Shown: positions 8,175-8,558, counted from the first letter of the stretch. The stretch: 11,200 nucleotides of DNA from a virus (IMGVR_UViG_2529292736_000009:1-11200); one strand, 5' to 3'. Notes: generated by a model not told the origin, from the letters alone. A program made the numbers and translations.

Positions 8175-8558
8175 ATGCAGAATCATTACAATGACCTTAA
8201 GCCAATTGCCGAAATGATGTATCCGGATCCAGCAGTAGAGGAATTAAAGGCTATTGCTGACAAAATGCGTTTAAGTGAACGCCTTGTTGATATGAATCAG
8301 GTGATGGAACTTACTACCCTTAGCCGTCGCACATTGCTAAACCTTGAGGCTCGCGGAGAGTTCCCCGAACGCGTACAGGTTACGGAAGGGCGTAAGGCCT
8401 GGTATTTAAGTGAAGTGATCGACTGGATAAACAATATTCCTCGAGCTTCTGAATATTGCCGCGTACCTGTCCCAAAAAAGCCAGATGCGGCGCTATGCCT
8501 CAAGATTGAGCGTGTACGTCGCAATGCACGGGATGGTCGCTATAAGTTGATTGGTTGA
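8175..8558 (+). CDS. AlpA-like (HTH_17) DNA-binding protein with ~45-aa N-terminal extension; possible excisionase or packaging-related DNA-binding factor
   Basis: 127 aa, AAGGGGGA SD; MELTTLSRRTLLNLEARGEFPERVQVTEGRKAWYLSEVIDWINN matches the AlpA/Xis-type HTH pattern; sits immediately upstream of the cos site. Confidence 0.6.
   Translation: MQNHYNDLKPIAEMMYPDPAVEELKAIADKMRLSERLVDMNQVMELTTLSRRTLLNLEARGEFPERVQVTEGRKAWYLSEVIDWINNIPRASEYCRVPVPKKPDAALCLKIERVRRNARDGRYKLIG

Follow-up and report, generated by a model that had tools for sequence, protein, structure and literature searches.

The stretch IMGVR_UViG_2529292736_000009:1-11200 (11,200 nucleotides; hereafter the window) contains a complete Gram-negative phage-inducible chromosomal island (PICI) of the cos type and of the EcCICFT073 kind, whose insertion adjoins smrA. 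Beside the canonical alpA gene next to int (alpA1), this island of E. coli carries a second gene of the AlpA family, alpA2, directly behind the capsid genes and upstream of cos. It is possible, with a likelihood that we place slightly below even, that AlpA2 is the own transcription factor of the capsid and packaging operon and acts through an array of TTGCAY hexamers at the operon promoter, P_E. The comparison covered 142 loci encoding AlpA2 relatives and 80 loci with the alternative capsid cassette of the EcCICFT073 type. The gene, the fold class of its product, the strict linkage to the capsid genes E and D, the array and its exclusivity for these cassettes, and the covariation patterns were observed.

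AlpA2 and the repeat array at the capsid promoter

The open reading frame of alpA2 starts with ATG behind a strong Shine-Dalgarno sequence (GGGGG, 8165-8169). Its product matched the Pfam model PF05930 (Phage_AlpA) with 34.9 bits at a cut-off of 21 (E=1.4e-8; amino acids 36-85 correspond to model positions 2-51 of 51) and PHROG 2790, described as 'excisionase and transcriptional regulator' (E=1.8e-48). The nearest solved structure was the AlpA-family excisionase of GIsul2 (PDB 8c3t, E=1.6e-10). An earlier note, made from the sequence of this DNA alone, had described a second AlpA-type helix-turn-helix protein of 127 amino acids at 8175-8558, with an N-terminal extension and a C-terminal tail, in addition to an AlpA-like gene beside int at 1597-1785. 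All of this was borne out: the gene beside int matched PF05930 with E=2.7e-18, and the lengths of both additional segments of AlpA2 are conserved across genera.

The protein was modelled with AlphaFold (AF2) from an alignment of 64 sequences (mean predicted local distance difference test score, pLDDT, 78.8; core >90); this model replaced a poor earlier one based on 16 sequences (pLDDT 64). It comprises two N-terminal helices (8-15 and 19-33), a winged helix-turn-helix domain (37-86) and a basic C-terminal helix (105-119). The domain is of the MerR/Xis type, with a strand, two helices, a beta-hairpin wing and a further helix, and the sequence of its recognition helix is LSRRTLLNLE. In the tail, the columns P100, P103, L107, K110, R113 and R115 are conserved, and the tail is also kept in the 51-55% identical relatives P0100 and P0101. 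The features of the cassette are as follows.

6571-6600: perfect 11-bp inverted repeat (ATGCCGGAAAA/TTTTCCGGCAT), a hairpin between ssb and P_E
6675-6710, plus strand: four direct hexamers in 10-bp phase (TTATAC at 6675, TTGCAC at 6685, TTGCAT at 6695, TCGCAT at 6705), the proposed AlpA2 site
6726-6731, plus strand: predicted -10 element TAGAAT of P_E, 15 nucleotides past the array (promoter scan)
6772-7812, plus strand: lambda E-like major capsid gene, the first gene of the cassette (PF03864, E=6e-41; RefSeq start in L001)
7822-8163, plus strand: lambda D-like head decoration gene (PF02924, E=2e-15)
8175-8558, plus strand: alpA2 coding sequence, 127 amino acids, stop codon included (open reading frame, PF05930, PHROG 2790)
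8175-8279, plus strand: N-terminal extension of AlpA2, amino acids 1-35, two predicted helices; variable and shorter in some lineages (AF2 model, alignments)
8280-8441, plus strand: winged helix-turn-helix core, amino acids 36-89, nearly invariant, with the WINNIP motif at its end
8442-8555, plus strand: C-terminal tail, amino acids 90-127, with a P-x-x-P segment, the basic helix (amino acids 105-119) and an L-I/V-G end

The full-length homologues numbered 99 in one search, and proteins of this kind (112-133 amino acids) are present in Escherichia, Enterobacter, Citrobacter, Klebsiella, Salmonella, Kluyvera, Kosakonia, Cedecea, Buttiauxella and others. They form a narrow subfamily: among 1.84 billion representative proteins, three scored <1e-30 and 15 <1e-10, and the rest matched the helix-turn-helix only. 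Of 5426 complete E. coli genomes, 398 contained the gene; its sole annotation there is 'helix-turn-helix transcriptional regulator'. NCBIfam contains no family for AlpA2, a tblastn search of 50,697 phage records returned no relative, and a description of the protein was not found in the searchable PICI literature (PMC6092414, PMC6739421, PMC9026076, PMC10111431, PMC10085698, PMC11773190, PMC13612085). Within E. coli, the ratio of nonsynonymous to synonymous substitutions (dN/dS) is 0.06, which reflects strong purifying selection. Between genera, dN amounts to 0.02-0.07 in the core at saturated dS, to about 0.45 in the N-terminal extension and to about 0.3 in the tail. Since the core is almost invariant although synonymous sites are saturated, the target of AlpA2 must be conserved across genera.

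AlpA2 shares with the canonical AlpA of EcCICFT073 the PF05930 domain, the winged-helix fold, the location on a cos-type PICI and upstream direct repeats in 10-bp phase. However, it is twice as long (127 versus 62 amino acids) and possesses the N-terminal helical extension and the basic C-terminal helix; the cores are about 35% identical, and the recognition helix reads SRRTLLNLE in AlpA2 and SRSCRYRLE in the canonical protein. Whereas a canonical PICI AlpA (about 60-75 amino acids) is encoded directly downstream of int and is co-inherited with it, AlpA2 is encoded in the capsid module and assorts independently of int and alpA1. Typical E. coli PICIs are said to encode a single AlpA (PMC11773190).

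The linkage to the capsid genes is strict. In the window, alpA2 starts 11 nucleotides past the D-like gene, and in all AlpA2 loci whose flanking DNA is long enough it lies directly after E and D and before cosQ, with a gap of 10-12 nucleotides to D in nearly all of them. The order E-D-alpA2-cosQ is also kept in 51-57% identical relatives and in satellites whose integrases and replication genes are different.

All AlpA2 cassettes possess three to five direct TTGCAY repeats in 10-bp phase just upstream of P_E. The consensus of this block is ACTTTATACAwyATTGCACnnnnTTGCAYnnnnTTGCAY, followed by TGnTAGCAT, and the flanking intergenic DNA is not conserved. TGnTAGCAT, an extended -10, is the form of this element in most relatives, and TAnnAT is conserved in the alignments. 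Most genera have no -35 element at P_E; the array occupies a single helix face at roughly -30 to -75. Cassettes of E. coli have exactly 10 bp fewer between array and -10 than those of other genera, by which the helical face is kept. In 1.58 Mb of AlpA2 loci (both strands), 133 out of 133 triple arrays lie <140 bp upstream of E; none was detected in 0.6 Mb of CFT073-type loci, in lambda, in two CFT073 prophage segments or in the rest of the window. In the locus L002, similarity to the window begins only a few bases before the first repeat, which shows that the array belongs to the module.

According to these sequence comparisons, the array tracks AlpA2 and not AlpA1 or Int. The window and L001 have an identical array and 99%-identical AlpA2 proteins with unrelated AlpA1 alleles. 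In L238 the array is different although its AlpA1 is related to the one in the window. Recognition helices with SRRT are paired with TTGCAY/TTATAC hexamers, also in the 51%-identical L236, those with SRGT with TTGTAC (L012), and those with SRQT with TTAGAC/TTGGGT/TTGTGC (L238, L239). A late-gene activator had been among the options of the earlier note, and as far as late regulation is concerned it gains support from this conserved, cassette-specific array at the promoter of the capsid operon.

The hairpin at 6571-6600 is terminator-like. In the window it is preceded by an A-run and reads as a minus-strand terminator; equivalent hairpins occur in aligned relatives, in several of which a plus-strand T-run follows. 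It is likely that this hairpin is a bidirectional terminator which insulates the capsid cassette from the replication operon. Since it stands between the replication genes and P_E, the cassette requires promoter control of its own. No leader terminator was found 3' of P_E in the window.

Xis and BldC, which are structural relatives of AlpA2, recognise their sites through phased direct repeats. An array of this kind, spaced by one helical turn, exclusive to the cassette and covarying with the recognition helix, is present here, and binding of AlpA2 to it is putative. BldC of Streptomyces, a MerR-like winged helix-turn-helix protein without effector domain, differs from AlpA2 as it is a chromosomal developmental regulator, lacks the two extensions and is unrelated in sequence (13-18% identity). 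Allele-specific 10-bp arrays were also found between int and alpA1, with GAACAAC six or seven times (window, CFT073) or AAAACC four times (L001). Those of the window are six direct 10-bp repeats (G/C)GAACAACG at 1254-1313, directly downstream of int and upstream of alpA1; the array of EcCICFT073 has seven copies (L008 34185-34250). These repeats are probably binding sites of AlpA1 or are Int-associated. Because of such arrays upstream of alpA1, and because AlpA of EcCICFT073 activates its own promoter (PMC6092414), phased direct repeats seem to be the usual means by which AlpA-type proteins of these islands recognise their sites, by analogy.

We propose a portable cassette composed of the repeat array, P_E, the E-like and D-like genes, alpA2 and cosQ/cosN, of which AlpA2 would be the dedicated regulator. 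Several AlpA2 molecules would bind the three to five hexamers head-to-tail via their winged-helix domains, one helical turn apart and just upstream of the extended -10 promoter that lacks a -35 element. The array-bound protein would then control the transcription of E, D and alpA2, most likely by activation and hence with positive feedback, and the N-terminal helices and the basic C-terminal helix would give oligomerisation or contacts to RNA polymerase. Since the promoter scan predicted no promoter between cos and terS, the gene of the terminase small subunit (TerS), AlpA2 probably also controls the genes past cos (TerS or Rpp, orf93) on circular or concatemeric DNA. Binding to the array and the direction of the control are inferred from sequence; an activator is more likely than a repressor, because P_E has no -35 element in most genera and the array is located at roughly -30 to -75 on one helix face.

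Several observations weigh against this proposal. As the array and alpA2 are physically linked, they would be inherited together in any case; protein and array are connected purely by comparison, and the covariation of helix and hexamers comes from three lineages only. The strong ribosome-binding site of alpA2 and its position after highly expressed structural genes would better suit an abundant architectural or stoichiometric protein, and an activator encoded at the end of its own operon needs basal or read-through expression to start. Furthermore, TTGC-N6-TTGC is the lambda CII box too, so that a helper factor could be the true ligand, and the promoter of the CFT073-type cassette holds TTGCA-type motifs though AlpA2 is absent there.

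Alternative functions of AlpA2

The likeness to CII boxes leads to the alternative that AlpA2 is directed at the helper, either by acting on helper promoters (e.g. at CII-type boxes) or via contacts of its extra helices, and that a protein of the helper or the host, for example CII, reads the array at P_E. Formally, the array is TTGC-N6-TTGC-N6-TYGC and thus of the lambda CII box type, and one of only two matches of lambda to TTGCAY-N4-TTGCAY (one mismatch allowed) is the CII box of pRE. In addition, interference with the helper is common among PICI genes that lie downstream of the replication origin (PMC6739421). However, the two matches in lambda are at chance level (1.9 expected), a triple array is absent from lambda and the CFT073 prophage segments, and the array covaries with the recognition helix of AlpA2. 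The distance from array to -10 is also about 4 bp off that in pRE and varies by one full turn from genus to genus; a CII-type activator at -35 should presumably not tolerate this. We consider a helper-directed factor unlikely, and a reading of the array as CII sites was rejected because of this geometry and the chance-level matches. A sigma-54 reading was likewise rejected, as the -24 GG is missing and the spacing is 10 bp and not 11, and so was an origin of replication, as the iterons are a separate 13-bp family at 5626-5873.

The 'AlpA' of P. aeruginosa has only the name in common with AlpA2. It possesses a Q-like eight-helix fold with a C-terminal helix-turn-helix and an N-terminal ring and acts at a promoter behind which a terminator lies (PMC9371919), whereas AlpA2 is a winged helix-turn-helix protein of the Xis/MerR type. 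An analogy to this antiterminator was rejected, because its fold is unrelated to PF05930.

AlpA2 might also be a recombination directionality factor, that is an excisionase for the Int of the island or a stand-in for the helper prophage, as is reported for alpA_1 of EcCIMP1. The latter is likewise a second gene of the AlpA family in an E. coli PICI and is not required for the canonical role of AlpA (Pick et al. 2025, PMC11773190). It is located at the far end of its island on the opposite strand, resembles the helper Xis and supports excision of the helper (PMC11773190). In contrast, AlpA2 has no tblastn relative among the 50,697 phage records and is thus unlike any helper Xis, and EcCIMP1 has neither capsid nor terminase genes. 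An excisionase should co-evolve with its integrase, and AlpA2 does not, which makes this function for the island's own Int unlikely. Between the window and L001, E and D are 99-100% and AlpA2 is 99% identical, but Int is only 23% identical, AlpA1 is unrelated and the integration sites differ. Islands with AlpA2 are inserted next to smrA, next to tRNA-Pro or inside prophage E genes, and more distant family members (51-57% identical) were found in further contexts such as fis. Covariation with Int or AlpA1 was tested and none was found. Moreover, alpA2 is about 7 kb (about 6.9 kb) away from int, which the canonical alpA adjoins, and no repeat array of the P_E type occurs near the island ends. 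Compared with the excisionase of GIsul2 (PDB 8c3t), RdfS, lambda Xis, TorI and P4 Vis, AlpA2 shows neither linkage to nor covariation with an integrase, and compared with winged-helix proteins of the Xis type its candidate site lies at a promoter and not at an att arm, and it has the extra N- and C-terminal segments. We regard this function as decidedly improbable. The excisionase named as an option in the earlier note is thus disfavoured, in keeping with the low weight which that note itself gave to plain excision.

The remaining alternative concerns packaging, for which the following features are relevant.

8585-8648, plus strand: cosQ (GGGTCCT, 8585-8591) and cosN with the 12-nucleotide cohesive end GGGCGGCGACCT (8615-8626), which is identical to that of lambda (alignment with the lambda genome ends)
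8663-8682, plus strand: candidate island cosB CTGGTGGTGGTTTTGTTGTT, left-end bp 49-68, outside the AlpA2 module
8760-9302, plus strand: Nu1-like island TerS in the variable left arm (PF07471, E=1e-24)

The coordinates and the alignment with the lambda ends confirm that alpA2 is located between the capsid genes and cos/TerS and away from int, as the earlier note had stated. The stop codon of alpA2 is 26 nucleotides before cosQ and 56 nucleotides before the cohesive end. From the cos anatomy it follows that, in the packaged DNA, alpA2 is the final gene on the right and the TerS gene the first on the left. From this position the same note had derived that packaging or late regulation is more likely than excision; late regulation agrees with the array at P_E, packaging does not agree with the independent assortment of the two arms.

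As a packaging accessory, AlpA2 would bind the cos region or a TerS (of the island or the helper, in an Rpp- or Ppi-like manner) and favour packaging of the island or block that of the helper. Identical AlpA2 proteins are followed, however, by Nu1-like TerS alleles at 81, 84, 85, 87, 91, 95 or 100% identity, by Nu1 of the phage type (38-40% identity) after a helper-type cosB, by homologues of Rpp (L123, L124, L130, L136), or by neither TerS nor Rpp. Islands of the L055 type, which are embedded in helpers (L055 6381-9550; L054-L092), have AlpA2, a helper-type cosB, defence genes and a truncated helper E and lack TerS and Rpp; they rely on the helper-type cosB, and blocking helper TerS would be self-defeating. 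In the CFT073-type cassette the slot of AlpA2 is occupied by p137, which resembles the C-terminus of Nu3/gpC of prophages and is not DNA-binding, yet the same TerS or RppA genes are its partners. The 26-60 nucleotides between the stop codon of alpA2 and cosQ are not conserved between genera despite the invariant helix-turn-helix, and an AlpA2 site in this region was rejected on that account.

AlpA2 did not match PF07471, the family to which the neighbouring Nu1 homologue (8760-9302) belongs, and neither tblastn nor phmmer revealed similarity to Rpp. Rpp (redirecting phage packaging protein) of EcCICFT073-type PICIs is encoded downstream of cos in the slot of TerS, consists of a winged helix-turn-helix at the N-terminus and a coiled coil at the C-terminus, binds the TerS of the helper and recognises the cosB of the island. 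AlpA2 differs from it in domain order and in the location of its gene upstream of cos, shows no sequence similarity to Rpp or Nu1, and occurs alongside Rpp (L130, L136) and not in its place. In the 142 and 80 loci, neither synteny nor the assortment of alleles revealed any coupling, and a TerS-partner or Rpp-like role was rejected. The independent assortment of AlpA2 and of the TerS and cosB types argues against a specific partnership with TerS, and the terminase-partnering accessory of the earlier note is not supported, as identical AlpA2 proteins precede at least seven alleles of TerS (81-100% identity), homologues of Rpp, a helper-type cosB that lacks island TerS and Rpp, or nothing. A packaging function in general appears very unlikely to us. 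The proximity of alpA2 to cos reflects its membership in the capsid module of the right arm and is no evidence of a role at cos.

Right and left arms and other features of the island

Since the content past cos varies freely and the same TerS and Rpp genes also occur with the CFT073-type cassette, the capsid cassette of the right arm and the cosB and TerS/Rpp of the left arm assort independently, with a breakpoint at cos. Identity to lambda past cosN runs to bp 34 of the left end (8648), followed by divergence. Near-identical cassettes (e.g. L013, L034, L002) are associated with different 12-nucleotide cohesive ends (GGGCGGCGACCT, GGGCGTCAGGCG and GGGCGGAAGGCG). Because the sequence mosaic switches within or beside cosN, cos appears to be a recombination hotspot that joins right and left arms.

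The position of the candidate cosB matches the proposal of Murialdo and Feiss for R3 in PICIs (PMC9026076). In islands of the TerS type the candidate reads CTGGTGGTGG, and in those of the Rpp type (CFT073, L130, L136) the reverse-complement motif CACCACCACC was found; both orientations are equally far from cosN (window 8663-8682; L008 about 42600-42625; L130). In the island TerS, the C-terminal two thirds of lambda Nu1, which bind TerL, are retained (Pfam match to amino acids 34-151), but the winged-helix DNA-binding domain at the N-terminus has diverged and is shorter. This pattern is consistent with a switched cosB specificity and continued recruitment of the helper TerL. In the L055-type islands, the defence pair consists of HEPN (RiboL-PSP) and GmrSD on the opposite strand, followed by the 3' portion of E, the interrupted capsid gene of the helper.

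The CFT073-type cassette has the order p68, E', D', p137. The product of p68 (L008 40463-40669), its first gene, has a ribbon-helix-helix-like appearance, and p137 (L008 42084-42497) is an acidic protein of 137 amino acids, 36-37% identical to the C-terminus of a prophage S49 peptidase (gpC/Nu3 scaffold region). The promoter of the cassette shows a perfect TATAAT, followed by the hairpin ACTGGAT-GAAC-ATCCAGT and the T-run TATGATTTTTT, which suggests that it is under leader-terminator control. PerC was rejected as a counterpart regulator of these cassettes, as it occurs in only about half of the loci.

The main genes of the island are all encoded on the plus strand, and a search of the window against Rfam gave no matches. 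The remaining features are listed below.

1-1230, plus strand: int
1597-1785, plus strand: canonical alpA (AlpA1; PF05930)
between alpA1 and the DUF4222 gene, plus strand: small early genes
3918-4217, plus strand: DUF4222 gene
4214-5629, plus strand: RepA-type helicase gene
5626-5873: 13-bp iterons
6131-6553, plus strand: ssb
9567-9851, plus strand: conserved gene, about 94 amino acids

Between the RepA-helicase gene and the next open reading frame, at least 10 copies of the 13-bp iteron AAAAGTGGG(T/G)AGT are present, six of them in tandem at 5629-5706. They presumably represent the replication origin of the island; at the equivalent place, L238 possesses GGTGGGAC iterons. An open reading frame of 396 amino acids on the plus strand (1838-3028) is probably not a gene; for the equivalent region, the annotation of L001 gives a truncated 'ash family' pseudogene. 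The overlapping minus-strand reading frame of 101 amino acids (2545-2850; PHROG 6522, E=1e-63), which is among the few leftward-transcribed genes, is the more credible gene.

Late gene control in Gram-negative satellites

The control of late genes (capsid, packaging) in Gram-negative PICIs is essentially undescribed, and the literature ascribes their regulation to a single AlpA beside int. About 7% of the complete E. coli genomes and many other Enterobacteriaceae possess a second, architecturally distinct AlpA paralogue that is locked to the capsid genes and to a conserved candidate operator. The finding also corrects a tempting inference, as a neighbourhood to cos does not imply a function in packaging.

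It is conceivable, but rather unlikely, that AlpA2 and the array constitute a self-contained, self-activating switch, so that the capsid/cos right arm is a plug-in module which can be exchanged among satellites through recombination at cos. Its partners would include unrelated integrases, master regulators, replication modules and packaging-specificity genes. The extra helices may then sense a helper protein, or AlpA2 may read or compete for CII boxes of the helper, which would tie the late genes of the satellite to the lysis-lysogeny circuit of the helper or disturb this circuit.

If AlpA2 is indeed the transcription factor of its own cassette, it would provide, together with its array, a compact orthogonal activator-operator pair for engineered PICIs. 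For the satellites themselves, a defined pair of promoter and regulator would be at hand for tests of late-gene timing, and the exchange of the capsid/cos arm between satellites with its regulation intact would be explained.
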